Source: Pedobacter sp.
Lineage (GTDB): Bacteria; Desulfobacterota; Desulfuromonadia; Desulfuromonadales; Syntrophotaleaceae
NCBI GenBank assembly: GCA_050253415.1
Contig: JBFWJC010000005.1
Location: forward strand, 32,001-96,000
DNA length: 64,000 bases
Direction: 5' to 3'
Every line of letters begins with the position of its first letter. The stretch's first letter is position 1. A program made the translations under genes and the position numbers. This document shows positions 3,599 through 50,826 of the stretch, piece after piece. The notes under the pieces were generated by a model. That model made no database searches and had not been told where the DNA came from. It saw nothing but the letters and a program-made list of their open reading frames with translations.

Positions 3599-3629
3599 CA
3601 GGTGGTCTCCATCCGGGAGATCATCAGTT

Positions 3630-27376: not shown

Positions 27377-27461
27377 CGGATGCTTTGAAAGGCCGCCAAG
27401 GATAAGGTCCAAGCCGTTCGCAATCTGATGCAGGTCCTGTGATTAAGCTTAGTTTTTTCTT

Positions 27462-29256: not shown

Positions 29257-29299
29257 ATTGCATGATCCGTTTAAAAAACTTTTTAGGAAGGTTGGGTCT

Positions 29300-29962
29300 T
29301 TGATCGAGTACGACGAAATGGAAAAACGGATGGTGCTCAAGTTGGTTTATTACGGACCAGCTATGTCCGGGAAGACTACCAATTTGCTACAGCTTCACGA
29401 CCTCCTTCAGCAGGAAGGCCGCGGCGATCTCATGGTTTTGGATACGAAGGATGATCGGACAATTTTTTTTGATCTCCTGCCGTTTTTTTTGGTGGCTCCC
29501 AGCGGTTTGAAGATCAAGGTAAAGGTTTACACGGTGCCCGGTCAGGTAAAACATGATGCCACCCGAAAGGCTGTCCTTCAGAGGGCCGACGGAGTGGCGT
29601 TTATAGCTGACTCTCAACTATCGGAAATATCAAATAATTACAATAGTTTCCAAAACCTTGAAAAAAACTTGGGCTTTGTCGGCCTGGATATTGAAAAAAT
29701 ACCCTTGGTGGTGCAGTTCAATAAACGGGATTTGAGCCAGACTGTTCCTGAGGAAGAGATCCGTCGAGTTTGGACCCCCTCAAGTATCCCCGTTTTCATG
29801 GGGGCCGCTCTGCACGGTACCGGTGTTCTGGAGACCTTTATCCATTTGGCGGATCGTGCCTACACTTATGTCGACTCCAGATTTGGACTTTCCAAAAACC
29901 ATGGTCTTGATAAATACATGTTTCTTTCGCAACTTGTGCGTAGGAGTCCAGAGTCTTCTTAA
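29300..29962 (+). CDS. mglA: MglA-family small GTPase
   Basis: KLVYYGPAMSGKTTNL, DRTIFFD, TVPGQ and QFNKRD. Likely TTG start at 29300. Confidence 0.88.
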   Translation: MIEYDEMEKRMVLKLVYYGPAMSGKTTNLLQLHDLLQQEGRGDLMVLDTKDDRTIFFDLLPFFLVAPSGLKIKVKVYTVPGQVKHDATRKAVLQRADGVAFIADSQLSEISNNYNSFQNLEKNLGFVGLDIEKIPLVVQFNKRDLSQTVPEEEIRRVWTPSSIPVFMGAALHGTGVLETFIHLADRAYTYVDSRFGLSKNHGLDKYMFLSQLVRRSPESS

Positions 29963-30110
29963 AGAGAAAAGATCTCTGCTGTATCTGAGAATAGCAAATC
30001 AAACTGAGGATAATCGCTCTTTAATTCGACAAGTCTCGACTTGGTGTGCAAATGAAGATTCTGCTCAAATGTTTCAAGAATACCAGACTGCGTAACAACT
30101 TGGAGTATAT

Positions 30111-33804: not shown

Positions 33805-33883
33805 GTTCCCACTGGATATGTGGAAACGGAAATCCTTACCCGGCCGGTGCAACATTCGGCCTTACGGCGGAAGGCGGCGAGCT

Positions 33884-34444
33884 ATGGAAGAAACTATAAA
33901 CTGCATTTTGCTGGTGGACGATGAAGTTCATGTCGTCAAGGCGTTGCAGCGGGCTCTTATTGAAGAAGATTACGAAATTATTACAGCGAATAGCGGTGAA
34001 GAAGCTTTGGAGACCCTGTCCAGACATGCGGTCAAGGTAATAGTTTGCGATGAAAGGATGCCCGGCATGTCCGGGGCGGAACTGCTTTCCATCGTCAACA
34101 CCAGGCATCCGCAAATCGTACGGATCCTTCTTACCGGATATGCCACCCTTGAAAGCGCTATGAAAGCGGTGAACGAAGGTGAAATATGGCGGTTTTTCAC
34201 CAAGCCATGGAGCGATCTGGACCTTGCCCTAGCGATTCGCTTGGCTATCGAAAAATACGATATGGAAACGAAACTCCGGCAAATGATGGCCTTGGTGCGC
34301 ACGCAGCATCTCGAACTCGAAGCTCTTAAAGGTGTCAATTCTGGAAGCACGCTGTCGGGAAAAACCAAAGATGGCAGCTATTATATGCCTGAGCTGACGG
34401 AGCAAGATATTGCACAAATTTTGGAGGAATGCCGGACAAGTTAG
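33884..34444 (+). CDS. Response regulator receiver protein
   Basis: Start ATG 33884. VDDE, CDERMP and KPW. Confidence 0.85.
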   Translation: MEETINCILLVDDEVHVVKALQRALIEEDYEIITANSGEEALETLSRHAVKVIVCDERMPGMSGAELLSIVNTRHPQIVRILLTGYATLESAMKAVNEGEIWRFFTKPWSDLDLALAIRLAIEKYDMETKLRQMMALVRTQHLELEALKGVNSGSTLSGKTKDGSYYMPELTEQDIAQILEECRTS

Positions 34445-34961: not shown

Positions 34962-36329
34962 GGTAGTGTAAAGAATTTTTCGCTTTTTTTCGGCAGCGCC
35001 CCTGTCGGTTAGCTGGTTTCGGCCCCCATGCTCAGTTCCAAATCTTGCTCCCGGAGAAGATCCATATTCAGGTACCGCCTTGAGCCCCACTTGATCCCGG
35101 CGATGTGCCGCAGACGGGCCGCACAGAGCATCAGGGCCGAGTGACCATCCGGAAAGGCTCCGACCACCCTGGTTCGCCTACGGATCTTCTTCATGATCCG
35201 CTCCAGGGCATTATTGGTGCGAATTCGCGTGTGGTGCTGGCGGGGAAAGTCATAATAGGTCAACGTTTCACCAATGGAATCGCGGACCTTTTTAGCGGCC
35301 TCTTTCAGGCGCATCCCGGCCAGTTTTTCGCGGACCTGCTCGGCTTTTTGCTTCGCCGCCTCCTTGTCTTCCGAGGCGTGAATCGCCTTGAGCATAGCCG
35401 CAACTTCCCGCATTCGCTTGGCCAGCAACTCGCTGAAAACATTGCGGTAGAAATGGACCATACAGCGCTGCCATTTGCCCGCAGGAAAAAACTCGCCAAG
35501 GGATTCCACCAAGCCCATGCAGGCATCGGTGATAAAAAGGCGCCCCCCCCCTGAGGCCTCGCTCTTTCAAATGACGAAGAAAATTGGACCATCCGGCTCG
35601 GTCTTCTTTGTGTCCTTCGGCCACCCCGAGAATTTTCCGGTACCCGCAGGCGTTTACGCCGATGGCGACCAGCACCGAAACGTTGCTGAACTCCCCGCCC
35701 CAGGAGCGCTTCAGAACGATACCGTCGATGTAGACGTAGGGGATTCCTCAATGGGGCGGTTTCGCCACTCTTCGATCTTGGCGTACACTTTTTTGTTGAG
35801 GTTGCTGATGGTCCCAGGGCTCACCTTGATGCCCCAAAGGGCTTCGGTGATATCCTCAACGCGGCGCACCGAGACGCCGGCCAGGTACATCTCGATCAAA
35901 GCTTCTTCCACCGAGGCCTCTCGGCGCCGATAGCGTTCGATGATGGCGGTCTCAAAAGTCTGGCGCCGTAGCTTGAGCATGTTCAGCGTCACCTCGCCGG
36001 CCTGAGTCTGTAATTTGCGCTGATAATGGCCGGCCCTGGTATCGGTGCGGGCTTCGTTGCGTTGGTATTTTTCAGCATTGCACAGCCGATCCGCTTCGGC
36101 ATCGAGCATGTCTTTCAGCGTCTGCTCCACGGTGCTGCGCACGATCTGCCCCAGGTGATTGCGGACAGCGGTTTCATTCAGTTGGATAATTTTGTCCCGA
36201 TCTGGTGTACAATCGTTGTCCACGGCAGTGCTTCCTTTCTTGGTTAAGGTTTGCGTTTGGCGACACAATTCTAACCTCAAGGGGCACTGCCGTGCCTCAT
36301 GAAAAAAGCGAAAAATATTTTACGTTATC
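34962..36329 (-). mobile_element. IS256-family element with frameshifted transposase
   Basis: Transposase split over three ORFs (35711-36280, 35292-35675, 35009-35518; EMYLAGVSVRRV, WQRCMVHFYRN, RTNNALER). Terminal IRs GGTAGTGTAAAGAATTTTTCGC and GATAACGTAAAATATTTTTCGC. Confidence 0.92.
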
Positions 36330-36386
36330 AGGGCGATACCTGCGTCTTGCGCAGTCCCTTGTGAAATCTTGCTGCACTAACTGACA

Positions 36387-36735
36387 GGTCTGTTCCTATC
36401 TTAAAATTGGAATTGGACGCAACGCCAAGGCAACCCAAACGATGTTCGCTTAATGGCCAGGTAGGTTTCAGGTGGAAGGGATAGGCAGGCATCTCAAGAA
36501 TTTTAGCGCATTTAAGCAAAGAATAGCTATTAGTCATGCATTCCATAAATGGCAACCCTTTGTCAGGATGGTGCGTTCCGGCAAAGGGGTATGGGTGAAG
36601 TCGCTGAAAACCTTGCGGCAGGAGGAACAGCGATAACGCTGCCGGTCGTTCTGGGTACCGTAGCGAATAATCTTTTCATGCCTACAATGCGGCCAGGAAA
36701 AGCCTTTTCGGAACCTGTTATCACGGACCTCGCCA
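36387..36735 (-). mobile_element. IS1595-family remnant
   Basis: Zinc-ribbon PHC..EKIIRYG....QRYRCSSCRKVFSDFTHTPL, then GTHHPDK..PFMECM, then GVAS and an IS1595-like end AAGATAGGAACAGACC. Core is deleted. Confidence 0.65.
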
Positions 36736-38265
36736 GTCAGGTTGCTGAACTTTAAAATTGACAATCTCATCAATAGCAATTGCTCCCTTCGCAAGCCCCA
36801 GCCTCATAGCAGCAGTTTTCTTGTCAACTTTACTCTTGAGGTAAAAATTGTAATACACTCTAAAAATATCCAGTAGCTTCTGTACCAACGCTGGGTTATA
36901 TGGCTGGTAGCCACTCCAGATTCGATTCTGGTTACTCTTGGACTTTTTTGGCCGATCCAATGGGTTCAGCCTAGTTCGGATCTGGTTGAAGTAGCTATCG
37001 ATGGCATGTAAGCTCGCCATGTGGTACAGATTAGCCAATTGCATCTCATCCAGATCGTTTCGGTTGGTCAGATAGAAAACGGCCTTTTCCGGCTTGCTCA
37101 TATCCTGGAACGGGTATTCCAACCACCGATCCTCCCACCTTCCGATGGTCTTTAGGCGTTTCATCTCCTCGGCAATCCGGAGCAGCCTTATCGATTTATC
37201 GGACAGCATTAGGTATTTGTAGCGTTGTGCATCCATGTCACGCTTATATATAGCAACAAGTCTCTGCTTTTGTGAATGGTCAGATCCTTATTGATGCGTA
37301 CGAAGAAGGCGTCACACTTCCCAGAGATAACTTCATCAGCAAAGGCAGACATACAGGCTGCCCGGATGCCCAAATCTTGATCCAAAAAGAACCAAATCTT
37401 TCCTGCGTTGGAGAGCAGCTTCTTGAGAAAAAAGAAGTGCCCGTACATCGTGTATTCCTCATGGATCTGCATTCCCTTGTGCGGCTCCGGATCGTCCGAC
37501 TCCTCGATCTCGCCTCGCTCCAGAGCATCCTGATAACGCATGGCAATATCGAAGGTCAGTCCTCCCGGCGGGATCGGCCCCTTCTGGTGCTTTGGCCGCT
37601 TGCGGTCGGCGTTGTCATGATCCACTTCAAGCCAAATCCGGGCAAATTCGCGAAACGGCATATCGAGGTTCTCGTCACCATTTTTTTCACAGTCGCCCGA
37701 ATAAAATCAGGGTCGAGGCTTGTGTCGTAGTTCACGTGCATGCCAAAGACGTAACCGGAGCGTATATCGGCCGTGCCGGTTGCCTTGATTATAACGTTGC
37801 GCTTATCCTTCGTATTCGTCCAGTTGACGATATATTCCTGTCGATCCGTGGCACAAGGTATAGACTGTGCATTGAAAGTCCCCCAAGGAGGAATTTGCGC
37901 TCCCTGTCAGCTATAAATGCAAGACAATGGGCATTGATAAAGTCTATCTTCCGATATACGGTGCGCATCGATACCTCGGCCACTTCACAGATGTGGACGA
38001 GCGGCTCCTTGTTCATCAGGAACTTCATGATCGTTTTATTTTTGTAGGCCACACGCTGTCGGGTGGTGGGTTTAGCACTGATTGAAAATGTTTTTCCACA
38101 TTCCTTGCAGCGATAACGTCTGGCACCCGTATCTGTCGTACCGAACTTCTGGTAGAAGCACTTGCCCTCGTTAACGTCGACACCGTAGTTGGTACAGGAT
38201 TCATCAGGACAGCATTGCACAACGTCAGAGGTTTTCTTCCAGACTGAACCCCAACTTATACCCAT
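36721..38265 (-). pseudogene. Fragmented IS1-like zinc-finger/DDE-type transposase-like gene
   Basis: Collinear pieces: CPDESC...RYRCKECGKTF plus HTH (37789-38265), a middle piece (37209-37741) and C-terminal FRVYYNF...TAAMRLGL (36721-37236). Frameshifts and a probable deletion. Confidence 0.6.
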
Positions 38266-38591: not shown

Positions 38592-40754
38592 TTAAATGTA
38601 AAAGCCAACATCTCTATTATATCGCTTATTAATGGCATTGATGAATGCCGATCGGTCACCTACAAATATCACCCTCTCCATTCCACGCGTAAGAGCTGTA
38701 TAGATAATCGAGTTATTAAGGTTGCGGTTTTTATGCATGGGGACAATAACGTTTTTCCATTTAGAACCTTGTGACCTATGGATGGGTAAGGAATAGGCCA
38801 GCTCGATTTGATCAAAGTCTTTTTCATGGATAGAACGGGCCTTTCCATCATCCCAGTGAGCGCTTATAGTCCATCCGTTCTCCTGGTCTAGCGAAATATT
38901 TGTGATGATTCCGAGGCTGTTTTTGAACAATTCAAGCTCGTAGTCGTTCTCGATAAAAATGACGGGGTCACCGACAGCATATTTCCATATCTCGCCGCCA
39001 TAAAAGGTCGAATGATCTTCTATTTGTTGGTGTTGGAGCAATTGATTGAGCGGGTATACACCGGCTCTGCCATTCTGTACAGAGCCGAGAATACGAGTCG
39101 ATTCTATATCATCGTTTTTCAGCCCCTCGAAGGTCTCGGAGACTCTGGTTGGTATATCTTCAAGGGAACACTCAATGAAAAAGACTCCTGGTCTTTCTGG
39201 AGTGGATGGGTTGAAGGGAAGAATTGCATTATTGGCTTTTTCGGCATCGTTTAAGAGAATACCCTCCGCAACATCAAGGATAGCAGAATCCTTCTCCTGA
39301 CTACAGATGACCTCAAGCTCTACTTTGGGCACAAGAACCGATTCTACAAGTTTATGGAACACCAGGCCAAATGAATCGGGTGGAAGTTGACGAGAGTCGC
39401 CAACCATCAGGATGCTTGCACCTCCTGGAATACATGACAAGAGGCGGTACATGGAGGACAAATCCACCATGGAGGATTCAACTATGATGAAAAAGGTGTC
39501 CTCGACCACCTGCCGCTTTCCACTTCTAACGTCCATACAGAATTTAGCAATAGGTAACGCCGGATGTAGCGTAAGATCTCGCATACGCCGGGCTGCAGGT
39601 CCAGAAGGTGCCATTTGGACAACCGGAGTGCCGGTCTTTTCCAAAACTTCGTAAATAGCCAAGAGGACGGTATTTTTTCCCGTTCCGATGCCACCACAGA
39701 TAATACTGAATTTTTCTTCGAGAGCTTGATAAACAGCCTGTTTCTGCTTTTTATTGAGTGTAATGTTTTTATTCTGACGGGCGCTTAAAGCCTTCTCGGC
39801 CGCTCGTATTCCACATTCAATGTCCTTGTCCTCAAATGCGCTAACGAGTTGGGTATCTGCTTCCTTGCGGCCATGAATGGCAAGCAGTCGTTCTCGAATT
39901 CTCCTTTCAAGGCGGGCAACGCCTCTATGCTGATATCCATCTTGCTTATTGCCCACAAGGACCTTTATTTCTTTAGCAACCGTCAAAGCCTTTATAGGCA
40001 ACGAACTATCACCTTCGTTCAGGTTAGCTCTTACCTTTGCCAGTAATTTGGAGTGCGGCGTCAAAGTGTGGGCTTTATCGTGGCGTGAGTATAGAGCTGC
40101 TTCTACTGCTCCTAGAAGGCGTCGATTATCGCATCCCGATATTCCTAAAAGACGGGCAGCGTTATCAACCAACTTCCATCCTGTGAATGCAAGTAGCTTG
40201 TAGGGATCATTACTCAGAAGATCAATAGAGCAGGGGCCCCAAGCTCGGATAATTTCCTTTGCAAGCCGGAAGTCTATCTCATGGTCACTTAGCCACCATA
40301 TGACTCGAATTTCCAAGGAGGCGGCTTTCCAGCGCTCGACCAATTCGGAGGCAAGAGACACGCTGATGCCCTCAGCCTGAACAAGTGTTTTGACGTCCCC
40401 AAGCTCCAAATGGTCCCTTAGGGTAGGGCCAAAAGTCGTCTTGAGAGATTTTATTTTCTTGGCACCAAGTGCGAAACCTCTCATGGTAGGGCTTTTGGTC
40501 AAGTAGTCGATAACGAGCCGACCCGAGGGCATATCAAGCAGAAGGTGGGAAGCACGCAATTGCTTTCCGTGCTTAGGGTGGTGCTCGAACACCCCTGTCA
40601 CAGTCCAAACTTCATCCTTACCCGGAGTTTGGAGGATGATGTTGTAGGGCGCAACAACCTTTATCTCTCCGGAATTGCTCTTCCCGGTAAAGATAGCACC
40701 ACCTCCCTGTGTTGAGAGGACCCTGTCAACGATTAAGCTGATTTTTACGAGCAT
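38592..40754 (-). CDS. RecD2/TraA-like SF1B helicase homolog with degenerate motifs
   Basis: N-terminal OB/HhH region, GGIGTGKN, IIVESSM, GD..QLPP, IHRSQGS and YTALTR. Confidence 0.82.
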   Translation of the reverse strand: MLVKISLIVDRVLSTQGGGAIFTGKSNSGEIKVVAPYNIILQTPGKDEVWTVTGVFEHHPKHGKQLRASHLLLDMPSGRLVIDYLTKSPTMRGFALGAKKIKSLKTTFGPTLRDHLELGDVKTLVQAEGISVSLASELVERWKAASLEIRVIWWLSDHEIDFRLAKEIIRAWGPCSIDLLSNDPYKLLAFTGWKLVDNAARLLGISGCDNRRLLGAVEAALYSRHDKAHTLTPHSKLLAKVRANLNEGDSSLPIKALTVAKEIKVLVGNKQDGYQHRGVARLERRIRERLLAIHGRKEADTQLVSAFEDKDIECGIRAAEKALSARQNKNITLNKKQKQAVYQALEEKFSIICGGIGTGKNTVLLAIYEVLEKTGTPVVQMAPSGPAARRMRDLTLHPALPIAKFCMDVRSGKRQVVEDTFFIIVESSMVDLSSMYRLLSCIPGGASILMVGDSRQLPPDSFGLVFHKLVESVLVPKVELEVICSQEKDSAILDVAEGILLNDAEKANNAILPFNPSTPERPGVFFIECSLEDIPTRVSETFEGLKNDDIESTRILGSVQNGRAGVYPLNQLLQHQQIEDHSTFYGGEIWKYAVGDPVIFIENDYELELFKNSLGIITNISLDQENGWTISAHWDDGKARSIHEKDFDQIELAYSLPIHRSQGSKWKNVIVPMHKNRNLNNSIIYTALTRGMERVIFVGDRSAFINAINKRYNRDVGFYI

Positions 40755-41188
40755 GTTTTGCGTCGAATTTCTCTTCCAGTTTCAAGGAGGTGATCTTCAT
40801 CAGATAGGGCGTTTTGAAGTGCCTTTTTAATAACTTTGTTTTCCTCAATCACAGTCTGGAACTGGTTTTGAAGTTCAATGATCTTATTATTAAGTTTTTT
40901 GATCTCACGATCCCTTTCTAGCAGAAGGGACTCGGTGTTTTTGTTGCTAGTCTTAGAATCCGTGTTGGTTGGTTCGATCATTGGCAGGGTATATCCATGG
41001 CGCTTGCAGTAGTCCACAAGCAATTTGGTTACACCAGTATTCTCATAGACAGGTGTTCTGTATTTGTAACCAACCATTCGAAAAAGCTGGCTAATATTCA
41101 CCTTGCCTGCACGCAGGGGTAATTCCGGCTTTAGAGCCAAAAACGATCGCATCATCTCAACGTGTTTTTTCCCCTGTTCCAAACTCAT
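40745..41188 (-). CDS. Small HTH plus coiled-coil protein typical of integrative elements (VPA1267/TnpC-like)
   Basis: GKVNISQL HTH-like segment, coiled coil and C-terminal LLETGR. Overlaps the helicase start. Confidence 0.55.
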   Translation of the reverse strand: MSLEQGKKHVEMMRSFLALKPELPLRAGKVNISQLFRMVGYKYRTPVYENTGVTKLLVDYCKRHGYTLPMIEPTNTDSKTSNKNTESLLLERDREIKKLNNKIIELQNQFQTVIEENKVIKKALQNALSDEDHLLETGREIRRKTCS

Positions 41189-41202
41189 CGGTGGTTTCCT
41201 AC

Positions 41203-41607
41203 CTACTTAATAATTGCTCGCTCTAGTTCACGTATTTTACCGTATGCTTTCTGGGACTTTTCCTTTTCTTTTTTTAATTCCTCTTCAAGTTTTTTGATTT
41301 TCAATTTTAAGGTTGCATTGACAGAGGCTTTCGAACCTTCAGAAGGGCGCTCCCTTTTCGAGGTTTCGCCAGTAACTTGACCATGATCTCCTTGCCTTTT
41401 AATCAAATCTTCAATCCGAAGACGAAACTCGCTATGATCATAGAGGTATGTTCGCGAAACGCCAGCTTGTCTTGCTACCTCAGCAATAGAAAAAGGTATG
41501 TTGTCTTTAAGCATTTTCTTGATAGCTTTTTGGGTCGATTTGGACTTCTTGTCGACCTTGTTGGCAGTTGCGGCCGCGAGAGCTTCTAATTTTTTAATCT
41601 CAGACAT
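41203..41607 (-). CDS. Tn554 TnpC-like (DUF6262) protein
   Basis: AIKKML....FSIAEVARQAGVSRTYLY...RLRIEDL plus coiled coil, directly after the TnpB-like genes. Confidence 0.8.
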   Translation of the reverse strand: MSEIKKLEALAAATANKVDKKSKSTQKAIKKMLKDNIPFSIAEVARQAGVSRTYLYDHSEFRLRIEDLIKRQGDHGQVTGETSKRERPSEGSKASVNATLKLKIKKLEEELKKEKEKSQKAYGKIRELERAIIK

Positions 41608-41618
41608 AGCTTCAATCC

Positions 41619-43517
41619 TTATATGGCGCTTGAACTTTCCAGACCGGTTATGATCTCTTTCAAGCGATCAATTTTCTTATTTGCTTTGGTTTGCTGTTCT
41701 TCCCAACCATTGTAGTAGGCGATCTTTTCAAGCTCTTCGTTTTCAGCAAGATGCTTTTTGTGAACAGGGAGAAAGACTCTCGTTGTTTTGAAGAATTCAT
41801 AACAGAATAAACAGGCGTCAGCATGGGGGCAATCGCCGGCTAGAACGGGTAGGGTGCAGACGCCATTAGGCAATATCTGTGTCATGATGTTTCTCCTTAA
41901 CCATTTTGTATCGAGGTTGGTGAGCGACATAATCTCATCAGCGACTTTGCCGATAACTTCACTTGTAGACTGAGCAACAAAAGCTTCAAATTCTCTTTTG
42001 GCGGTCTCATCGAATAGATGTGCATAAGTGTCCAACATTGTGTCACTATTGTAGCCCATGTAGCGCATTACGATATGTAATGCGACGTTGTTGTTGATCA
42101 TCCTCGTAGGGACTTGATGTCGATAGCGATGGGGACTCGGTACCCAAATAGAACCCTCTTCATTACGGATCTCGTTAGCCACTGCCCATTCGTGGTAATG
42201 TGCTATAAAGCTGGATCTGTGATAAGGTTGGCCTTGTTCATTTGGAAATAGCAAAGTGCAACCAACACCGTGTGTATCAACAACCCTTTTGGCTTGTACT
42301 GAGATACATTTGGCGAGTTCGAGCGTAATGGGAACGACATGCCACGTCTTTTGCTTGCGGAGATACCGGCTCATGTGCCAATCGCCATCGGAGTCCTGCT
42401 TAAGACAGGTTCTTTCTAGTCCACATATCTCACCAAACCTCGCTCCAGTTTCATCGATTATTGCCAAAGTTGTACGCCATGGTTCCTTTAGGATCTCCAT
42501 GTGCCGAATTATTTGCTCATAGACGAACTCAGAAATGTAGCCTGAGTGTTTGCCTACCCCGCGCGCAACATAAGGTATATCTTCGTTCCATATTAGACGT
42601 TCATCAGGGAATCCATGGTCATCGATGGCCGCTTCGGACTCTAGGATATTGCGAACTATGCTAAGGTTTTTTGCAATTGAGGAATCCTCCAGAACTCCTC
42701 CCTTATTCCGGCCGCGAGTGATTTTCCAGTTTTTAAGGTAACGAATGAACTGCTCAATCACTTCCCTGGTAATTTTTTCAGGAGAATCTACTTTAGGTTG
42801 TTTGTCACCAATGAACTTGGAGAACCGGTTGATGTCCGTGATGCAGCTCTTCAGGTATAGATAGTCGTTTGTTAGCGACCAGTCTTTCCATACGTCTTTG
42901 GCTGCCTTACGGAGCCAGCCTTGGCTGATACCAGTGAAATTGAGAGGCGTTGGAGAATTGCCGGCAGGGACATCAAGGCCTGTTTTAATTGGGCAGACCT
43001 TGTCTTTGCTCCATTCGTCTCTATCGTCATAGAAGTCTTCAAGGATTTTATAGAGAACCGCAAAACGGCAAACCAAGAAGTGCTTGGTCATTTTTCTTTC
43101 CGTGATACAGCCATCGGATTTTGAAAAATATCCTTTTTTAACCGGAAACTTGTACCCATTTTCTTTTAAATAGGTAGTTAGTAACGTTTCCCAAAACTTC
43201 AGAGACTTTTCCATGAGGGAGGATATGCCTGTGATATTGGAGTCAATTATCTTGATATAAATATGGACTCCAAACTGAATTACGTCGGTGCCGAATCTCC
43301 CTTCTTTGATTCCAAGGTAATGGACGACCTTTAATTCCTGGTTGATTTGCTCGATTTTACAGTTGAATCGCACCTCAAGATCAACCTTTGGGGGAGTGCC
43401 GATTGGTATTTCTTTTAGAGGCCAGGTGTTCTTAGCCCAGTAGCCCTGAAGGATTTGGGAGATTTCAAGACCCTTCTTTTCCGAAGCAGCCTGTTTAAGG
43501 ATATAATTTTGATCCAT
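41619..43517 (-). CDS. Tn554 TnpB-like tyrosine recombinase (copy 2)
   Basis: 632 aa. ETGARFGE, HRYRH, MGY, catalytic TYAH and C-terminal LPNGVC...CPHADACLFC tail. Confidence 0.87.
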   Translation of the reverse strand: MDQNYILKQAASEKKGLEISQILQGYWAKNTWPLKEIPIGTPPKVDLEVRFNCKIEQINQELKVVHYLGIKEGRFGTDVIQFGVHIYIKIIDSNITGISSLMEKSLKFWETLLTTYLKENGYKFPVKKGYFSKSDGCITERKMTKHFLVCRFAVLYKILEDFYDDRDEWSKDKVCPIKTGLDVPAGNSPTPLNFTGISQGWLRKAAKDVWKDWSLTNDYLYLKSCITDINRFSKFIGDKQPKVDSPEKITREVIEQFIRYLKNWKITRGRNKGGVLEDSSIAKNLSIVRNILESEAAIDDHGFPDERLIWNEDIPYVARGVGKHSGYISEFVYEQIIRHMEILKEPWRTTLAIIDETGARFGEICGLERTCLKQDSDGDWHMSRYLRKQKTWHVVPITLELAKCISVQAKRVVDTHGVGCTLLFPNEQGQPYHRSSFIAHYHEWAVANEIRNEEGSIWVPSPHRYRHQVPTRMINNNVALHIVMRYMGYNSDTMLDTYAHLFDETAKREFEAFVAQSTSEVIGKVADEIMSLTNLDTKWLRRNIMTQILPNGVCTLPVLAGDCPHADACLFCYEFFKTTRVFLPVHKKHLAENEELEKIAYYNGWEEQQTKANKKIDRLKEIITGLESSSAI

Positions 43518-43531
43518 TTACCCCTCCTGCT

Positions 43532-45373
43532 TTATAAATTTGCCAGGATTTTTCTGAGCTTTGTGCAGGTATTGCCTGAGATCTGGCGCTGTCTTTTCAT
43601 TCCTAGTGAGGCTGCATTCGATTCCAGCTCCTCCGCTCGACTCAGTTGATCCTCAAGTTCTGGCCGCCAAAATTCGCTTGTTCTGAATGAGCCACAGGTG
43701 AAGCAGGCATCGGCATGATCGCACGCTCCCATGGCCTTAGGGCGCCGGCAGAAACCGTTTGGAAGAACGTGAGTAAGCATGTTGTGCTTTAACCACTGAT
43801 TGTCTAAGGAGTTTGGGTCAAACGATTCTTCTGCGACATTTCCATCGCAATCCACGATGCGACCATGATATTCGGTCCACGCCTCTTTAAGGGTTGAATC
43901 GTAAAGATGAGCATATCTCCTTGTAGGTGCAGAGCTGGCATGACCGAGAAACCTTTGTACAGTTTTTTCGCTGCCGGTCTTGTTTAGCATTTCTGTTCCT
44001 GCTGTGTGGCGTGCTTGCTTGGAGGTATATCGCCAGATTGAACCATCCTCTTGCTTAATTTCATTAGCAATAATGAATTCGTTGACATTTTTATTGAAAG
44101 TTGTTTTGGAATAAGGCTTAAGCTGGGAGGACTTGAGGTTGGGAAAGAGAAATTTGGGCTCCTTGCCAAGATTATCTCTAAGATGCTCCTGCCAACGTTG
44201 AATTTTACATGCGAGTTCATCCGTGATAGGCACCACATGGTATTTGCGTTGTTTGAATAAGTATCTTTTAAAGCACCTGTCCTCACCATCATGGTGAAGA
44301 GCATCAAATTCCAATTTGGTGATTTCGGTAACCCTTGGACCGACTTCAAGAGAGATATCAAGCATCAAGTTCCAAGGGTTTTTGAGGTTTTCCAGCTTGT
44401 CAATAATTTGTTTTTTGACGAAAGGGGGGATGAAGTCTGGAAGCGGGTTATCGCTTTTTGGAATGAACTCCTCCTTGACCAACCTTTTAAGTGGGAAATC
44501 AGCCAATCCATGTTTCGCACTGTATTCTAAGAACCCTCTTAAGTGGTAGAGGAGGTTTGCTCTGCTGCCGTCATTTTTAATAATTTTGTTTATGTGGGCG
44601 ACAAAATCTTTAATGGATTTTCCATCAATATCGGAGGGCCTTGCGATCGTGTTCTTTTGTAATATGAATTTGGAGAGGTGGACCACCGCCTCTATGTAAC
44701 CACAAAGTGTCCCCCATGCAATCTCCTGCCTGTTCTGGGCGAATTTAACAAATATATCCCTGAGCCATTGAATCTCAATACGATTGAGGTTCATCGATTG
44801 GGGGTGGGAATCAGGTTCGTGACCTAGGAGGTCAGGGGTTATAATTCCTTTCTCCCAGGGTGTTCTTTTGTCCTCATAATTATAGATTTCTGCATATAAG
44901 CCTCGCAGGAAATTCAAAAGCGGATGATTCTCTGCGTGGTGGTAGGTAACGAGCTCCCCGTCCTTGTTGCGGTATTGAACTACACGAAATTTATTTGGCT
45001 CGAATTCTCTAGCGTAGGGAAGGGCTAGTTTTTCCCATTCTTCAAGCTCCAAATCAAGAATGGAGTGTGTCTTGGGGCGACAGAACTCTATAAATTTAAA
45101 AAATAAGCGAAGGGAAGTTGCGCCGGTGTGGCCCATAAAAGACCACTTGCCACTTATATAATTTCCTTTACAGAAATATTTACATTCGTTATTCAGTTGG
45201 GCTGAAAAGAATTTGAACTTAGAGAAATTATCTTGCCGGTGCAAAGAAGGATCGTTGCCTTCAACAGGAAGCGTTTTGGAAGACCACTGGTCTTTCGACC
45301 AGTATTCTCCAAGCGTTGACTCAATCGGAATTCGAGCCTTATTCTCTTTTGGCACAATAAAGAAACGATCCAT
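43532..45373 (-). CDS. Tn554 TnpB-like tyrosine recombinase (copy 1)
   Basis: 613 aa. EVGPRVTE, KQARH, LGH, RYAH and C-terminal LPNGFC...CDHADACFTC tail. Confidence 0.87.
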   Translation of the reverse strand: MDRFFIVPKENKARIPIESTLGEYWSKDQWSSKTLPVEGNDPSLHRQDNFSKFKFFSAQLNNECKYFCKGNYISGKWSFMGHTGATSLRLFFKFIEFCRPKTHSILDLELEEWEKLALPYAREFEPNKFRVVQYRNKDGELVTYHHAENHPLLNFLRGLYAEIYNYEDKRTPWEKGIITPDLLGHEPDSHPQSMNLNRIEIQWLRDIFVKFAQNRQEIAWGTLCGYIEAVVHLSKFILQKNTIARPSDIDGKSIKDFVAHINKIIKNDGSRANLLYHLRGFLEYSAKHGLADFPLKRLVKEEFIPKSDNPLPDFIPPFVKKQIIDKLENLKNPWNLMLDISLEVGPRVTEITKLEFDALHHDGEDRCFKRYLFKQRKYHVVPITDELACKIQRWQEHLRDNLGKEPKFLFPNLKSSQLKPYSKTTFNKNVNEFIIANEIKQEDGSIWRYTSKQARHTAGTEMLNKTGSEKTVQRFLGHASSAPTRRYAHLYDSTLKEAWTEYHGRIVDCDGNVAEESFDPNSLDNQWLKHNMLTHVLPNGFCRRPKAMGACDHADACFTCGSFRTSEFWRPELEDQLSRAEELESNAASLGMKRQRQISGNTCTKLRKILANL

Positions 45374-45411
45374 TGGTTGTCATGACCTCCTAAGAAGCAC
45401 AGTTTGGCCTG

Positions 45412-46542
45412 TTAGTCCTTCTCCTTTTTTGAATCCCTAATATGGTTGTGATATATATTGATTGACACTCTTGATTCTTCATCATCAACGTGTGCATATC
45501 TATCTAGCAAAGTCGTCACGTCCTTAATCCCGGACCTTTCCTGGGCCACTTTGATGGAAACGCCACTTTTAAGCATGTCAGTGATATTGGTGTGACGAAA
45601 AAGGTGGGGATGTAACCTCTTTATGCCGGTCTTTTTCCTAACAGTTCTTACAATGCTATTAAAAGCACTAACCGTAAGAGCACTTCCTCTTGTAGGACCT
45701 TGCAAAACTACAAAAACGAAATCGTTTTCAAGGTCTTCAACCTCTTCGACAAGGTACGAAGTGTAGAGATTCATAACATCAGGTGTAACATCAAGGGTTC
45801 TCGGAGCTTTTGTTTTTTGATTGGATTTATTGGGATTGTTACGGCGCTTTCGGAAGGTGATTTTATTATCCCAGGCCTCAATGTCTTCATGTCGAAGGCC
45901 GAGTAATTCACCTATTCTGGCTCCCGTTTCATAAAATAGGGAGAATATGAGTTTATCCCGGATGGTTCTGCAACATTCAAAGATCTTGTCTAGTTCATGT
46001 TTTTTTAAAGGACGGATAATTGGAGGGGCTTCTTCGGGAAGCCTGATTTTATTGACAACTTGTGGAGCGTTTTTATCTATCCCTTCGAGGAAATTCCTGT
46101 ACTTTGTTTTTCTTTTGCCACGATGAGAGACAGAAACGGTATTCAAGGGATCGGTCTCGAAGGTACGTATTCTTGTATGGTAATCGTAAAAATTCTTAAC
46201 TGCTATATTTATTGTATTTATAGACTTGTTCCCACGAATGCGCGGTAGTGGCTCATCATTTATGTTTTTTGGGGCTACTTTTAAATAATTGGGATTTTTT
46301 AGCCACCATATAAAAGTTTTCAGTAAGCTAAACGATATATCTTCTTTCCAGTCAGCCTGAACTTGCTCGCAAAAAGTAAAAAAAAGCGTGAGGTGGCGAA
46401 CGTAGTTTTCGACCGTGTTTTCCTCGTAGAGAAGGGCGATAAAGTCAACCCACTTTTCGACATGGGGTAGCGGAAGATAGTCTTTGTTTGCGATGGTCCA
46501 TGATATTGTCCCATCGCTAAGCAGTATTTTCTGCATCTCCAT
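45412..46542 (-). CDS. Tn554 TnpA-like tyrosine recombinase
   Basis: 376 aa. ENTVENY, ETGARIGELLGL, DFVFV, HPHLFRHT and RYAH. Confidence 0.88.
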   Translation of the reverse strand: MEMQKILLSDGTISWTIANKDYLPLPHVEKWVDFIALLYEENTVENYVRHLTLFFTFCEQVQADWKEDISFSLLKTFIWWLKNPNYLKVAPKNINDEPLPRIRGNKSINTINIAVKNFYDYHTRIRTFETDPLNTVSVSHRGKRKTKYRNFLEGIDKNAPQVVNKIRLPEEAPPIIRPLKKHELDKIFECCRTIRDKLIFSLFYETGARIGELLGLRHEDIEAWDNKITFRKRRNNPNKSNQKTKAPRTLDVTPDVMNLYTSYLVEEVEDLENDFVFVVLQGPTRGSALTVSAFNSIVRTVRKKTGIKRLHPHLFRHTNITDMLKSGVSIKVAQERSGIKDVTTLLDRYAHVDDEESRVSINIYHNHIRDSKKEKD

Positions 46543-46546
46543 TTAA

Positions 46547-47008
46547 TTACCTCTTTCCGGTGTGGCCCAACCCTCCTTCACCTCTTTGAGAGTTGCTACT
46601 GAAGTTATCAACGATCTTGAGATCGACTTGGACAACAGGTACAAACATCATCTGGCATATACGCTCTCCAGGTTTGATTTCGAAGGATTCTCCGCTACGG
46701 TTCCAAACACCGATCAATAGTTCTCCTAAATAGTCACTATCGATAACCCCAATTAAATTTCCCAAGACAATCCCATGCTTGATGCCCAAGCCGGAACGTG
46801 GGGCTAGGACTGCCATGTGGTTTGGGTCGTGAATATTGATAGCTAGCCCCGTTGGGATGATTTCAGTTTGGCCTGGCTCGATGGTTACGGGATTTTCAAT
46901 GCAAGCCCTTAGGTCCATTCCAGCAGATCCGTCAGTTGCGTATGTGGGCAAGGGGATTAGGTTTCCAAGCAATGGATTAACAACTTTCGCCTCGACTATT
47001 CTTTTCAT
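46547..47008 (-). CDS. dut: Trimeric dUTPase, element-borne copy
   Basis: Motifs AGMDL, PRSGLG, GVIDSDY, GERICQ and [10 protein letters not shown]. Stop lies 4 nt before the TnpA-like start. Confidence 0.95.
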
Positions 47009-47040
47009 TTATTATAAAATTTCCCCTATTTAATATTGAG

Positions 47041-47163
47041 CGTTGATTCAACGATACCCAACGTTCTTGACACTGTCAATATGCCCTGTCAAGAACGTTC
47101 TTGATATGTTAAATATCCTAACGTAGCTGACGTAGTTGGCACAAGAATGGCATGTATGCATAA
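47041..47163. repeat. Element end with direct and inverted repeats (putative recombinase-binding/att region)
   Basis: AACGTTCTTGA at 47060 and 47094; inverse TGTCAAGAACGTT at 47087; palindromes TCAAGAACGTTCTTGA (47089-47104) and CGTTGATTCAACG (47041-47053); two ACGTAG copies. Confidence 0.6.
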
Positions 47164-47352
47164 GATGCGGATTATCGAGGGGAACTCGGTATTATTCTTA
47201 TCAACCACGGCACGGAAAAATTTGTTATCTCCGATGGTGATCGTATCGCTCAGCTGGTTTTCGCTCCTGTTCAAACAGCCACCTTCGAACAGGTTGAAGA
47301 CCTGGATGAAACGGATCGCAATGATGGCGGGTTTGGTCATACGGGTTTTTAG
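47164..47352 (+). pseudogene. dut: 3' half of the chromosomal dUTPase gene (motifs III-V), lacking its 5' half
   Basis: Not in the ORF track. After an in-frame TAA (47161-47163): [62 protein letters not shown]. Confidence 0.92.
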
Positions 47353-47424
47353 TTAGGTGTCATCTGTTGTTTCCGGATGGGATCCATTGCCTTTGATCTG
47401 GAAAAAGGGAAAGGAAAACTTACC

Positions 47425-48039
47425 ATGTTGCTTGCCATAAATCCCGAAACACCCCAGAAACGTCTGATAACCCGTGTTGTCGATTGTATTAAGCAAGGCG
47501 GAGTTATCGCTTATCCTACCGACACTATTTATGGCCTCGGTTGCGACATTTTCAACCGCAAGGGAATCAAGCGGATTTATCAGCTTAAGGAACGAACGGA
47601 ACGAAAGCCTTTTTCCTTCATTTGTGCTGATCTTTCGGATGTTTCCAATTATGCGCAGGTAAGTAACTTCGCTTTCAAAATCATGAAACGCTATCTGCCC
47701 GGGCCCTACACTTTCGTTCTTGACGCTACTCGGGTGGTACCCGATTTACTGGTAACCAAACAGAAAACCGTTGGTATCCGTATTCCTTCCAATCCGATTG
47801 CGCTAGCTATCGTTCGTGAACTTGGTCACCCTCTTGTCACGACCAGCGCCAATATCTCCGGTGAAGAGCCGTGTTACGATCCTTCCCTGATCGATGAGCA
47901 GTTGGGCAGGCAGATCGATATGGTCGTCGATGGAGGCATTATTCAGGGGGAAGCATCTACCGTTATCAGCCTCATTGATGACAAAATAACAGTGCTGCGC
48001 CAGGGCGCAGGAGACACCAGTTGGATACATCAGCTGTAA
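47425..48039 (+). CDS. Sua5/YciO/YrdC-family threonylcarbamoyl-AMP synthase-like protein
   Basis: IAYPTDTIYGLGC, LPGPYT, GIRIP and TTSAN. Start ATG 47425. Confidence 0.9.
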   Translation: MLLAINPETPQKRLITRVVDCIKQGGVIAYPTDTIYGLGCDIFNRKGIKRIYQLKERTERKPFSFICADLSDVSNYAQVSNFAFKIMKRYLPGPYTFVLDATRVVPDLLVTKQKTVGIRIPSNPIALAIVRELGHPLVTTSANISGEEPCYDPSLIDEQLGRQIDMVVDGGIIQGEASTVISLIDDKITVLRQGAGDTSWIHQL

Positions 48040-48210
48040 TTTGGCAAGTCATTTCCCCCCCTCCCAGTAGTTTCTTTGGTCAAGTTTTGATTCGTTCGGC
48101 AATATTGGTCGCCCAAACTTGAAAAACCGCTGTGCATCGGATATAGTGCCGGCGGTTTATCTGTGCTTTATCTTCTGTTGTTTGCGGCTCCAAAAGGAGG
48201 ATCAATTCCG

Positions 48211-49899
48211 ATGCTGGATTTTTTCAACCAGGCTACCATTTTTGGCCTCATCGGCGGACTAGGCTTGTTTCTGTTCGGCATGAAGATTATGTCGGAAGGA
48301 TTACAAAAGGTTGCCGGGGACCGCATGCGCAAGATTCTTGCGGCTTTAACGAATAACCGTCTCATCGGAACTTTCGTAGGTCTGGCTGTTACAGCCATTA
48401 TTCAGTCTTCCAGTGCAACGACTGTTATGGTCATCGGTTTTGTTAATGCCGGTTTGATGACATTAATGCAGGCTATTGGTGTCGTTCTTGGTGCCAACAT
48501 CGGTACGACTGTTACCGCGCAGCTTCTTGCCCTTAAACTCAGCCAATTTGCCTTGCCCGCTATCGGTATCGGTACAGGACTGAAACTATTCTCTCGCAGT
48601 AAAAAATGGATGTATAGCGGTGAGATTCTCCTTGGGTTCGGTATTTTGTTTTATGGCCTTACCACCATGGAAAGTGCTTTTGTTCCTCTCAAGGGGAGCG
48701 ATGCTTTTCGTGACTTCTTCCTTGTGGTCGGTGATAACTATTTGCTGGCGATCGCAACCGGGGCTTTGCTCACGGTGCTGGTCCAAAGCAGCAGTGCTAC
48801 CATTGCCCTTACCATGTCTCTTGCGATGAGCGGTCTTTTGAGTTTCGATGTTAGTGTCGCTTTGATCCTTGGTGAAAACATTGGCACTACCGTTACCGCT
48901 AATCTTGCCGCTATCGGCACCAACCTTGCCGCTCGTCGTACGGCATTGGCCCACTTATTATTTAATGTTATCGGGGTCGTGCTGATTGTTTTGTGTTTTC
49001 CGCTTTTTTTACATCTTGTCGATGCCTGGACCCCGGGTGATCCCAACTTTGTAATTCATACCGCTATAGAGTCCGTCCAATATGGTGCGGCTATTGGTGA
49101 CCTGCCGAATATAAAATGGCACATCGCAAATGCGCATACATTTTTTAACATCATCAACACCATTGTCTTCCTGCCCCTTATCGGGTTGTTGGCCAAATTG
49201 GCTTGTTTAATTTTGCCGGGCAAAGATGCGTTGATGGAGTTTCACCTTAAATATATCGATAACCGCGTGCTTAATACACCGCCAATTGCCATTGGCCAGG
49301 CCCGTTCTGAAACCAAGCGGATGGCGCATATCACCTTTGAGATGCTCGATGAAACCATGGAGTTTTTTCTGGACGGCAACTCCAAGCGTCTTACCTCTCT
49401 GGATAAAAAAGAAGAAATCGTCGATCTGCTGCAAAAGGAGATTACGGATTTTCTGGTGAATCTCTCTCAAAAATCCATCACTCAGGATATGTCTCGCGAT
49501 GTCGCCTCCATGATGCATATTGTTAATGATCTTGAGCGGGTAGGGGATCATTGTGAGGAGCTCTGGAAATTGGCAGGGCGGCTTCGTGACCTGAATCAGC
49601 CTTTATCGGCAGTAGCTACGCAGGAGGTTGAAGAACTGGCCGGCAAAACCCGAGACTTCCTGGCTTTTGTGATCGATGCACTGGATCGTGGCGATACCAC
49701 AATTAAATCCAAGGCTAGCTATATGGTACATATTATTGACGAGTTGGAAGATACCCTGCGTAATAATCATATCGCCAGGTTGAATACCGGTGAATGTTCC
49801 GTACAGCAAGGATTGATTTTCATCGACATGTTGCATGGCTTCTCCAAAATTGGCAGTCATGCCTTTAATGTCAGTAAAGCTGTTGTTGGTGACAAGTAA
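48211..49899 (+). CDS. Na+/phosphate cotransporter with PhoU-like C-terminus
   Basis: Duplicated QSSSAT and G.NIGTT motifs. Start ATG 48211 after GGAGG. Confidence 0.92.
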   Translation: MLDFFNQATIFGLIGGLGLFLFGMKIMSEGLQKVAGDRMRKILAALTNNRLIGTFVGLAVTAIIQSSSATTVMVIGFVNAGLMTLMQAIGVVLGANIGTTVTAQLLALKLSQFALPAIGIGTGLKLFSRSKKWMYSGEILLGFGILFYGLTTMESAFVPLKGSDAFRDFFLVVGDNYLLAIATGALLTVLVQSSSATIALTMSLAMSGLLSFDVSVALILGENIGTTVTANLAAIGTNLAARRTALAHLLFNVIGVVLIVLCFPLFLHLVDAWTPGDPNFVIHTAIESVQYGAAIGDLPNIKWHIANAHTFFNIINTIVFLPLIGLLAKLACLILPGKDALMEFHLKYIDNRVLNTPPIAIGQARSETKRMAHITFEMLDETMEFFLDGNSKRLTSLDKKEEIVDLLQKEITDFLVNLSQKSITQDMSRDVASMMHIVNDLERVGDHCEELWKLAGRLRDLNQPLSAVATQEVEELAGKTRDFLAFVIDALDRGDTTIKSKASYMVHIIDELEDTLRNNHIARLNTGECSVQQGLIFIDMLHGFSKIGSHAFNVSKAVVGDK

Positions 49900-50826
49900 A
49901 TGCTGGCGGCGGTAGATGTTGGTTCCAACACGGTACGGATGCTTCTTGGTGATGTTCGCAACGGCGCGATCATGCCGATTCGCTATGTGCGTCATGTCAC
50001 TCGTCTGGCCGGCGGTTCTGATCCCCGGTTGGGCCTGGCAGGTCAAAGCATGAATAATACCCTGACTGCATTGGGAGAAATGGCAGAAGCCATAAAAACG
50101 TCCGGTGCCGATAGGGTTAGGGTAGTCGGTACCGAAGCCTTACGTCGTGCCACCAATGGATCCGACTTTGCTCGCAGGGTTGAAGAGAATACCGGACTGC
50201 AACTAGAGATTATCGATGGCGAAGTTGAGGCATGTCTAAGTTGTAAGGGAGTTTTTGCTGCTCTGGATCCACGTCCGGATCGTTGTCTGATGTTTGATAT
50301 TGGGGGAGGTAGCACCGAATTCGTACTGTATGTCGACGGTCGGATCATGTTTCAAAGAAGCTATCCGCTTGGCGTTGTTGATCTCTGTGAGAAGTATTCC
50401 GATCCCGTCAATCAGCAAATATATATTGGTTCGATCCTCGATCGGGTGGCGGATGATTTGACGCTGTCTTCGTTGCTTGATACCGTCCTGGCTTCCTCAA
50501 CAATGTTGGTTGGGACCGCAGGAACGGTAACCACTCTGGCAGCTATCAAGCTCCGAATGACTGTTTATGATGGACTGCTTGTCAACAACCTGAATCTTTA
50601 TCCCGATGAACTTGCTTCATTGCTTCATCATCTTAAACCCTTATCAGATAGCCAGCGTGAGCAGATACCCGGTCTTGAAAAAGGCCGTGGCGATCTTATT
50701 GTACCTGGTATTCGCATTGTCCAGGGTATTTTCGGTCGCTTTCAAAAAGACGTGTTGAAAGTAAGCGATTTCGGTTTGCTGGAAGGGTTGCTTTTGACCA
50801 TGGCCGAAGAGCAGTCTTTATCCTGA
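49900..50826 (+). CDS. ppx: Ppx/GppA exopolyphosphatase
   Basis: DVGSNTVR, DIGGGSTE, GTAGT and GLLEG. Confidence 0.9.
   Translation: MLAAVDVGSNTVRMLLGDVRNGAIMPIRYVRHVTRLAGGSDPRLGLAGQSMNNTLTALGEMAEAIKTSGADRVRVVGTEALRRATNGSDFARRVEENTGLQLEIIDGEVEACLSCKGVFAALDPRPDRCLMFDIGGGSTEFVLYVDGRIMFQRSYPLGVVDLCEKYSDPVNQQIYIGSILDRVADDLTLSSLLDTVLASSTMLVGTAGTVTTLAAIKLRMTVYDGLLVNNLNLYPDELASLLHHLKPLSDSQREQIPGLEKGRGDLIVPGIRIVQGIFGRFQKDVLKVSDFGLLEGLLLTMAEEQSLS

Follow-up and report, generated by a model that had tools for sequence, protein, structure and literature searches.

A Tn554-like element at motif III of the dUTPase gene in a Syntrophotalea-like bacterium, predicted to carry a replacement dut

The split dUTPase gene and the adjoining recombinase operon

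The 64,000-nucleotide stretch analysed here (the window; positions 32,001 to 96,000 of contig JBFWJC010000005.1, assembly GCA_050253415.1) holds the 3' part of a host dUTPase gene (dut) and, close beside it on the opposite strand, a second, complete dut which heads an operon with three tyrosine recombinase genes and a tnpC-like gene, an arrangement which we interpret as one end of an integrative element inserted in the host dut. The genome (G000) is 100% complete by marker genes and lies in 18 contigs, of which C5 (holding the window), C7, C6 and C1 are referred to below, together with its relatives (G002, G003 and so on) and a locus with a second element (L015). The features at this end of the insert, numbered by window position, are as follows.

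47377-48039, + strand: backbone gene of the Sua5/YciO/YrdC family, directly after dut in relatives
47164-47352, + strand: host dut 3' fragment, residues 86-147 and stop, by alignment to the G003 dut
47164-47169: 6-bp core GATGCG, the Asp-Ala codons of motif III, by junction comparison
47154-47163: element terminus on the tnpA side, ending ...GTATGCATAA, an imperfect inverted repeat of the terminus on C7
47009-47153, - strand: operon leader, with a promoter-like site and a subterminal ACGTAGCTGACGTAGTTGG motif
46547-47008, - strand: complete element-borne dut, first gene of the operon, 153 amino acids (aa), PF00692 and NF001862
45412-46542, - strand: A, tnpA-like tyrosine recombinase, 376 aa, Pfam Phage_integrase
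43532-45373, - strand: B1, tnpB-like large tyrosine recombinase with a C-terminal Cys cluster, 613 aa, Phage_integrase
41619-43517, - strand: B2, second tnpB-like large tyrosine recombinase, keeping R...HxxR...Y, 632 aa, Phage_integrase
41203-41607, - strand: C, tnpC-like DUF6262 protein, 134 aa, 44.8 bits (cut-off 29) at E 1.6e-11
38592-41188, - strand: 147-aa open reading frame (ORF) of no known family and RecD2-like superfamily 1B (SF1B) helicase, by Pfam/NCBIfam
38592-40754, - strand: the RecD2-like SF1B helicase itself, 720 aa, by profile match

The 62 residues of the 3' fragment, which read DADYRGELG...GFGHTGF (47164-47349, stop at 47350-47352), are 81% identical to residues 86-147 of the G003 dut and contain no stop or frameshift; the fragment has no start codon or promoter of its own and an in-frame TAA stands just upstream of it. 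The 5' fragment was found on C7 (3621-3878, - strand), where residues 1-86, 93% identical to the G003 dut and likewise free of stops and frameshifts, read MDILK...NAPGTIDA and then give way to unrelated sequence. Upstream of it on C7 lie infB-rbfA-nrnA-truB-rpsO-pnp-M16 peptidase, and both halves are collinear with backbone genes. Searching the whole G000 assembly with PF00692 gave three matches, namely the element dut and these two fragments. An earlier sequence-only reading of the window had described the mutation-free 3' half, starting at motif III after an in-frame stop, and had predicted a 5' half ending at G(T/V)I; the open frame and the identity to G003 bear out the first claim, and the C7 fragment, which ends ...GTID(A) at the far side of the inserted DNA, supplies the second.

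In the host direction the 5' junction reads GGT ACC ATA GAT GCT / TTATGTATAG... and the 3' junction reads ...GTATGCATAA / GAT GCG GAT TAT, the empty site being ...ACC ATA GAT GCG GAT TAT. The core on C7 is GATGCT, and hence GATGCN stands at both sides of the insert, while the far terminus TTATGTATAG is an imperfect inverted repeat of GTATGCATAA. The core copy differing from the empty site (GCT) is the one at the end away from tnpA. For Tn554 and for integrative elements that circularize in a strand-biased manner (SEs), six bases from the donor's flank on the tnpA/intA side are described in the accessible text of PMC10214605 as going to the far side of the new site, and the placement of GCT fits this rule, on a single base. 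A duplication and a carried-over footprint would leave indistinguishable 6-bp repeats in the sequence alone.

The seven genes of the operon (dut, A, B1, B2, C, the 147-aa ORF and the helicase, all on the - strand) are separated by gaps of 4-38 nt or overlap slightly, and B1 and B2 are 32% identical. The gene calls, the Pfam matches and this spacing agree with the sequence-only reading, in which dut headed a tight operon with three tyrosine recombinases and a TnpC-like gene. The complete dut had been placed on the opposite strand about 155 bp off and called clearly different from the host gene, and we found 155 nt between 47164 and the start codon at 47008 and 43% identity between the element Dut and the G003 Dut. 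Matching positions 3-129 of the 129 in the PF00692 profile (E 5e-34, 117 bits, cut-off 22) and scoring 181 bits against the NCBIfam dUTP diphosphatase equivalog NF001862 (cut-off 103), the element gene is predicted, above curated cut-offs, to encode a full-length trimeric dUTPase.

A sigma-70-like site lies inside the element, 43 nt upstream of the dut start (-35 TTGACA at 47079-47074, 17-nt spacer, -10 TATCGT ending at 47051), and agrees with 10 of 12 consensus positions, as a consensus match only. This promoter-like site is enclosed or overlapped by a perfect 13-bp inverted repeat, AACGTTCTTGACA ... TGTCAAGAACGTT (47060-47072 / 47087-47099), which could be an operator or a recombinase-binding site.

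Uninterrupted homologues and a second element

Five relatives gave one dUTPase match each, inside M16 peptidase-dut-Sua5. Separate intact dut ORFs, in the order dut-Sua5, were seen in four of the five (G003, G005, G007 and G009); for G004 a long overlapping ORF interfered with the greedy listing, which gave no separate dut, the Pfam match there being open. DNA searches of five same-genus genomes found a contiguous backbone in which the homology to C7 always starts at 3618/3619 and that to the window at 47164, and in G006 a single contig carries both matches side by side, overlapping by 6 bp. The comparison with relatives having an intact dut-Sua5 locus, proposed in the sequence-only reading, thus favoured it in all five same-genus relatives searched, the homology breaking exactly at the 6-bp core.

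Logan contigs from other sequencing studies were compared with window positions 40000-50000 (one study, X1, is possibly the source sample and thus not independent). A 9085-letter contig from another study, X2, spans 40000-47334 with 65 differences, bridging the junction of element and dut and continuing 171 letters beyond it. Contigs from X3 and X5 match from 47163 rightwards and run on leftwards for 173 and at least 255 letters respectively in the sequence ...GGTGAACGCGCC(C/A)GGTACCAT, which is the end of the host dut 5' half, and therefore an uninterrupted dut exists in near-identical DNA. The target that had been proposed to be split by insertion is accordingly seen empty in two other metagenome studies and with the insertion in a third. 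Record 14 of X3, considered as a bridging contig, reaches only 23 letters past the junction and was too short to count.

A pattern scan of one genome per species was made with a 6-sequence alignment of B1 relatives, since a 26-sequence alignment was too diverse for the purpose, and gave 78 loci with tnpB-like relatives. When the operon proteins and the two Dut proteins were compared with these loci by tblastn, dut was present in one locus only, L015; a weak match in L074 lay inside a 1006-aa repeat protein and was rejected as spurious. L015 is a 48-kb contig of a metagenome-assembled genome (MAG) with both dut junctions on it, in the order host dut 3' part, element dut, A, B1, B2, C and host dut 5' part, adjoining pnp-rpsO, and so the dut-tnpA-tnpB-tnpB-tnpC neighbourhood that the sequence-only reading had suggested looking for was found, with the host dut split at the same two codons. 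The element is about 6 kb long with five genes and no cargo, the 147-aa ORF and helicase being joined to the operon in G000 only. Its proteins are 65% (dut), 42% (A), 42% (B1), 45% (B2) and 40% (C) identical to those of the G000 element, and in both elements dut holds the first position and abuts tnpA, with gaps of 4 nt and 0 nt. The hosts are distant from one another: their polynucleotide phosphorylases are 52% identical. G000 is Syntrophotalea-like, its M16 peptidase and that of S. carbinolica DSM 2380 being 77% identical.

The junctions in L015 read ACC ATT GAT TCA / TTATGTACAC... and ...GGTATACATAA / GAT TCA GAT TTT, giving a perfect 6-bp repeat, GATTCA/GATTCA, and insertion at the conserved motif III codons of dut, as originally proposed, is thus seen with exact junctions in G000 and recurs at these codons in L015. 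The two elements have termini of the same kind (TTATGTATAC / GTGTACATAA in L015), with terminal repeats TTATGYATA / TRYRCATAA in both elements, and a subterminal motif, TTACATGT(C/A)AAC(T/G)ACGAT(G/A)G, is common to the far ends of the two. The PF00692 matches in the L015 genome are the element dut and the two host halves only. In the host 5' half of L015 (14300-14560, - strand) the frame changes near residue 37, the 3' half being intact; this may be either decay of a broken gene or an error of MAG assembly.

Since the same arrangement recurs in an unrelated genome and relatives have an uninterrupted gene, chance is no explanation. That the split gene is an artefact of assembly or a chimeric contig might be thought from the 18 contigs of G000, with the dut halves on different ones, but the junction is bridged in DNA from the separate study X2, and the unrelated MAG carries both junctions on a single contig, which makes an artefact barely credible.

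We therefore consider, with a probability of roughly 0.8, that this is a Tn554-family site-specific integrative element which has its attachment site in the coding sequence for dUTPase motif III and carries a rescue dut. In the mechanism that we propose, the attachment site would be the motif III codons (GTID-A/S-D-Y/F-RGE), and the tnpA-like, two tnpB-like and tnpC-like products would recombine the joined element ends with a 6-bp core, GAT-GCN in G000 and GAT-TCA in L015. Integration would put the element inside dut, with the core at both sides and the imperfect inverted repeats at its tips, leaving the host dUTPase as two presumably useless pieces, for which the element would compensate with its complete, divergent dut, first gene of the operon and served by its own promoter-like site. 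A conserved housekeeping site would be usable without loss of function because the dut brought by the element is complete and its motif III DNA does not resemble the target: at the target position it reads GTT ATC GAT AGT GAC TAT TTA GGA, matching the host site in 18 of 33 bases, and the motif III sites of the two hosts match each other far better than this. The element's own gene would hence be spared.

The element dut is the only complete dUTPase match in G000 (PF00692, whole assembly less 4535 bases); no dCTP deaminase was found there above the cut-off, the sole match being the element dut itself, nor was a dimeric dUTPase found. Complementation by the element dut is suggested by this gene content; the gene would be expressed and would rescue the host, and the organism may need a dut. 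The gene is essential in E. coli and mycobacteria. On the other hand, dUTPases are encoded by many phages and other mobile elements and some bacteria lack dut, so that the gene might instead serve the element, as phage dUTPases do, in a host that tolerates the loss of its own, rescue being predicted from sequence. Against such a role stand the position of dut, first and abutting tnpA in both elements, the lack of any other dUTPase match in either host and the finding, described below, that among 45 related loci a spare copy of the target's family occurs only where dut is the target. We regard this alternative, with no rescue device, as improbable.

Recombinase relatives and known integrative elements

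All-against-all HMMER comparison with B1 gave 128 representatives at E 1e-30 or better, and only one non-self match above 35% identity (P0010, 42%). B1 also matches 449 plasmid records; the best of these are genes of staphylococci, enterococci and Lysinibacillus, aligned over 98% of the length with 27-28% identity (E 1e-53 to 1e-55 for the staphylococcal and enterococcal ones). A shows 28-37% identity to the recombinase that stands upstream of the tnpB-like gene at 65 related loci, among them staphylococcal Tn554-type loci; at the Tn554-type staphylococcal and enterococcal loci the figure for A is 33%. An S. aureus plasmid locus has the Tn554 layout (JAB-domain, or radC, fragment, recombinase, site-specific integrase and DUF6262 protein), and the gene in the tnpC position of the staphylococcal Tn554-type locus is annotated DUF6262, as is C here.

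B1 and B2 of both elements were aligned with a staphylococcal protein from the TnpB position and two clostridial proteins, and the catalytic Arg, Arg-His and Tyr and four C-terminal Cys residues are invariant; B2 keeps R360, H463-x-x-R466-H467 and Y498, and in B1 R347, R455-H456 and Y487 are kept, the first His being replaced by K. Since the catalytic columns are invariant, all three recombinases look catalytic. The Lys at the first His of HxxR is seen in the B1 pair (window 43532-45373 and L015:9974-11833), the His being kept in B2 and in the staphylococcal and clostridial proteins.

The usual layout over the 78 loci is A-B(-C), with A-B-B in three Clostridium loci. Upstream DNA was sufficient in 45 loci, and in these the ORF that ends directly before A was scanned against Pfam, with the following outcome.

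RadC cut at profile position 77-78 of 121: 14 of 45 (L032, L042, L047, L055, L056, L059, L061, L065-L067, L072, L080, L086, L088)
DEAD-box helicase without the end of Helicase_C: 3 of 45, cyanobacterial (L040, L058, L070)
Partial integrase (tyrosine recombinase gene): 3 of 45, Clostridium (L027, L030, L092)
ComEC fragment: 1 of 45 (L017)
ChlI/Mg-chelatase-like fragment: 1 of 45 (L035)
Complete dUTPase: 1 of 45 (L015)
Other or no family: the remaining loci of the 45

The truncated RadC, helicase, integrase, ComEC and ChlI-like genes upstream of A indicate that splitting genes inside conserved domains is common in this group, and a whole copy of the target's family stands there in L015 only.

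A gave no match at E 1e-20 in the 40 relatives, B1 none at E 1e-25 in 400 sampled genomes of the phylum and B2 none at E 1e-30 in the L015 genome's 40 relatives. A scan of genome contigs with A alone gave 153 pattern matches and no relative, a word-based protein search with A gave 8 proteins (best non-self 42%), a metagenome scan with B2 gave 6 loci, all about 26% identical, of A-B-C type and with no dut, and a viral scan for relatives of the element found nothing. Against the NCBIfam 'gamma-mobile-trio' recombinase model A scores 18 bits, far below the cut-off of 340, which might at most hint at kinship with the Gin proteins of GInt islands.

The sequence-only reading had called the element Tn554-like, and this description holds in that a small and a large tyrosine recombinase, a DUF6262/TnpC gene, a 6-bp core and imperfect inverted repeats were all found. 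Tn554 and the present element share the small and large (about 630-aa) recombinases with the DUF6262/TnpC gene at one end, reading inward. They differ in that Tn554 has exactly three genes, tnpA, tnpB and tnpC, whereas the present element and that of L015 have a second tnpB paralogue; in that Tn554 targets radC (att554) and the present element motif III of dut; and in that only the latter brings with it an unbroken paralogue of its target gene. The hosts of Tn554 are Bacillota, while those of the present elements are a Syntrophotalea-like bacterium of the Desulfuromonadales and a MAG. At the radC-type loci tnpA abuts the 5' part of the target, whereas here the tnpA end abuts the 3' part, in the opposite orientation.

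RIT elements have three recombinases of ordinary size and no TnpC-type gene; in the present element, by contrast, two of the three recombinases exceed 600 aa and are followed by the DUF6262 gene. Integrative elements of the tRNA, icd, dusA and prfC types repair their target with a duplicated gene end. Both they and the present element would avoid the cost of inserting into a useful gene, but in those elements the substitute end is fused in frame, whereas here the target is left broken and a whole separate gene with a promoter-like site is brought in.

The accessible text of PMC10214605 supports further comparisons. Tn554 and the present element both insert inside a gene, both show a core or footprint of 6 bp, and in both the terminal inverted repeats are imperfect. 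SEs, reported there in Gammaproteobacteria only, have the order intA-tfp-intB-srap with a tfp product lacking RHRY, whereas B1, second of the recombinase genes here, keeps R, R-H and Y. GInt islands, compared by layout from the accessible text on them, resemble the present element in that one end holds three integrase-family genes with a small TnpC-like gene, in their large cargo, some of it from related bacteria, in insertion that is site-specific and falls within a gene or at its end, and in imperfect direct repeats; according to PMC10214605 their third integrase, GinC, lacks the catalytic RHRY, unlike the recombinases here, all three of which keep these residues.

In the literature searched, no publication was found that treats Tn554 together with dUTPase, searches for dut as an integration site or insertion target gave only phage, retrovirus or unrelated papers, and no mention of DUF6262 was found. 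A dut target or rescue gene is not mentioned in the main texts on GInt islands and SEs or in the SE supplements, the GInt insertion-site supplement lying outside this coverage. The nearest printed idea found is the engineered home-and-rescue gene drive, which, in the accessible text of PMC7968924, follows the same logic of insertion into an essential gene with a rescue copy that is not itself targeted; those drives are man-made, CRISPR-based and eukaryotic, whereas the present element is natural, bacterial and appears to use tyrosine recombinases. The recombination machinery is thus of the known Tn554-like kind, and the novelty would seem to lie in the choice of dut as target, in the second TnpB and in the rescue by a whole gene that the element itself carries.

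RecD2-like helicase matches of low identity (26-29%) were also seen near two other Tn554-like loci (L017:1358-2617 and L028:3379-3759), the L017 match lying outside the element, upstream of the truncated ComEC.

Extent of the inserted DNA and possible consequences

The sequence-only reading had equated the element with 38592-47352; this range does contain the recombinase end, but it covers that end only, the dut halves being apparently about 83 kb apart in G000. C7:1-276 is the reverse complement of C5:19311-19586 (97.8%) and C5:1-184 matches C5:19769-19952 (93%), and therefore both contig ends stop inside copies of one repeat of about 640 bp, in the order and orientation expected if reversed C7 precedes C5 after about 180 bp. 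If this join holds, the insert measures about 83 kb (3617 + about 180 + 79163 bases). The DNA between the halves extends left of the window to C5:1 and, by this reasoning, would include C7:1-3617; within the window it comprises, beyond the operon, the following.

35012-38265: insertion sequence (IS) debris beside the helicase, an IS256-type transposase and an IS1/IS1595-like ORF
1-35011: DNA between the dut halves, in which signalling genes predominate (GGDEF/EAL, histidine kinases, sigma-54 activators, MshE-like ATPase)

The IS256-type (Mutator family) transposase is in two ORFs (35012-35518 and 35711-36280), and the IS1/IS1595-like zinc-finger ORFs lie at 36534-36794 and 37789-38265. TrkAH, a BglII-like nuclease and many small ORFs of no family are also present in the insert, and a PHROGs scan of 35 cargo ORFs gave scattered matches only and no prophage picture.

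It is possible that the mobile unit is only a recombinase module of about 6-10 kb and that most of the 83 kb arrived later, through IS, nested elements or rearrangement, and is immobile as a whole, a view we hold to be tenable but tentative. The L015 element of 6 kb without cargo and the IS256 and IS1-like debris at 35-38 kb are in keeping with it, and so are several patches of the insert. An 8.8-kb cluster at window 25604-34435 (histidine kinase, HD-GYP response regulator and MshE-like ATPase) occurs twice in G000, one copy between the dut halves and the other at C6:168514-177283, with 68-88% identity. C5:3479-10203 is 92% identical to G002, against a backbone identity of only 72-77%. No match to it was found in G006, whose backbone is the nearest (85-87%) and which is itself only 84% complete. 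C5:21851-30721, made up of small ORFs without a known family, is matched at 88-89% identity by DNA at C1:1395413-1397955 and nearby, possibly a second copy of some other element. On the other side, the far end on C7 keeps the terminal repeat and the subterminal motif shared with L015, and therefore both element ends are still in place; moreover, the accessible text on GInt islands reports cargo of up to 70 kb from related bacteria. The genus-like DNA of the insert fits such cargo and fits later accretion equally, so that the 83 kb may or may not still be one mobile unit.

Several points weigh against the interpretation as an integrative element with its own rescue gene. The two junction cores in G000 differ by one base (GATGCT and GATGCG), be it a carried-over footprint or plain mutation, and the evidence of mobility is limited to the presence and absence of the element in near-identical DNA. 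The need for dut is assumed by analogy with E. coli and mycobacteria. The join of C7 to C5, and with it the probable size of about 83 kb, depends on both ends lying in one repeat, and stretches between the halves look like chromosomal DNA from the genus, so that some of the insert may have come in by later rearrangement. Only two instances are known, G000 and L015, and a tree of 123 dUTPases was poorly resolved, with 60 of 120 inner branches open; in an approximately unbiased (AU) test of a single capture of dut (p 0.77), the sister relation of the two element duts was neither rejected nor demonstrated. A relative of the L015 dut (P0215) is 91% identical to it, and relatives of the G000 element dut stand at 73-74%.

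The usual way for an integrative element to spare its host is to insert at the end of a gene and restore that end. The present element instead breaks a housekeeping gene in the middle of an active-site motif and brings a whole gene of its own as the apparent replacement. If the rescue is real, it would explain how an extremely conserved site, and with it many possible hosts, can be used without cost; the recombinase operon would be tied to the promoter of a gene that the cell cannot switch off; and the element would gain a hold on its host, because the host would lose its only dUTPase if the element were lost imprecisely. For L015, where the host 5' half is apparently frameshifted and excision could therefore no longer restore the host dut, even a precise loss would have this effect. 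We would put at about even odds the wider proposal of a Tn554-type clade with a natural form of home-and-rescue, comprising a near-universal motif III landing site in distant bacteria, a dut that is not itself a target and growing dependence of the host.

Tn554-type recombinase sets appear to extend well outside the Bacillota and, with the truncated radC, comEC, helicase and integrase genes near relatives, the group as a whole appears to be given to splitting genes at conserved domains. With only five genes in 6 kb, the L015 element would offer a compact system in which to study how two TnpB-type recombinases and TnpC choose a 6-bp core.

Two repeats were seen at the contig ends. A dispersed repeat of about 50-70 bp, resembling a repetitive extragenic palindromic (REP) sequence or a miniature inverted-repeat transposable element (MITE), occurs at C5:116-184 and in about 15 places on C1, C2, C4, C5 and C7, its copies being 82-97% identical, and lies where contig ends interrupt the island. 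Tandem repeats with a 7-bp unit (CACTTGT or ACCAGTC) form long runs at the C7 end, at both ends of C10 and at the start of C8.

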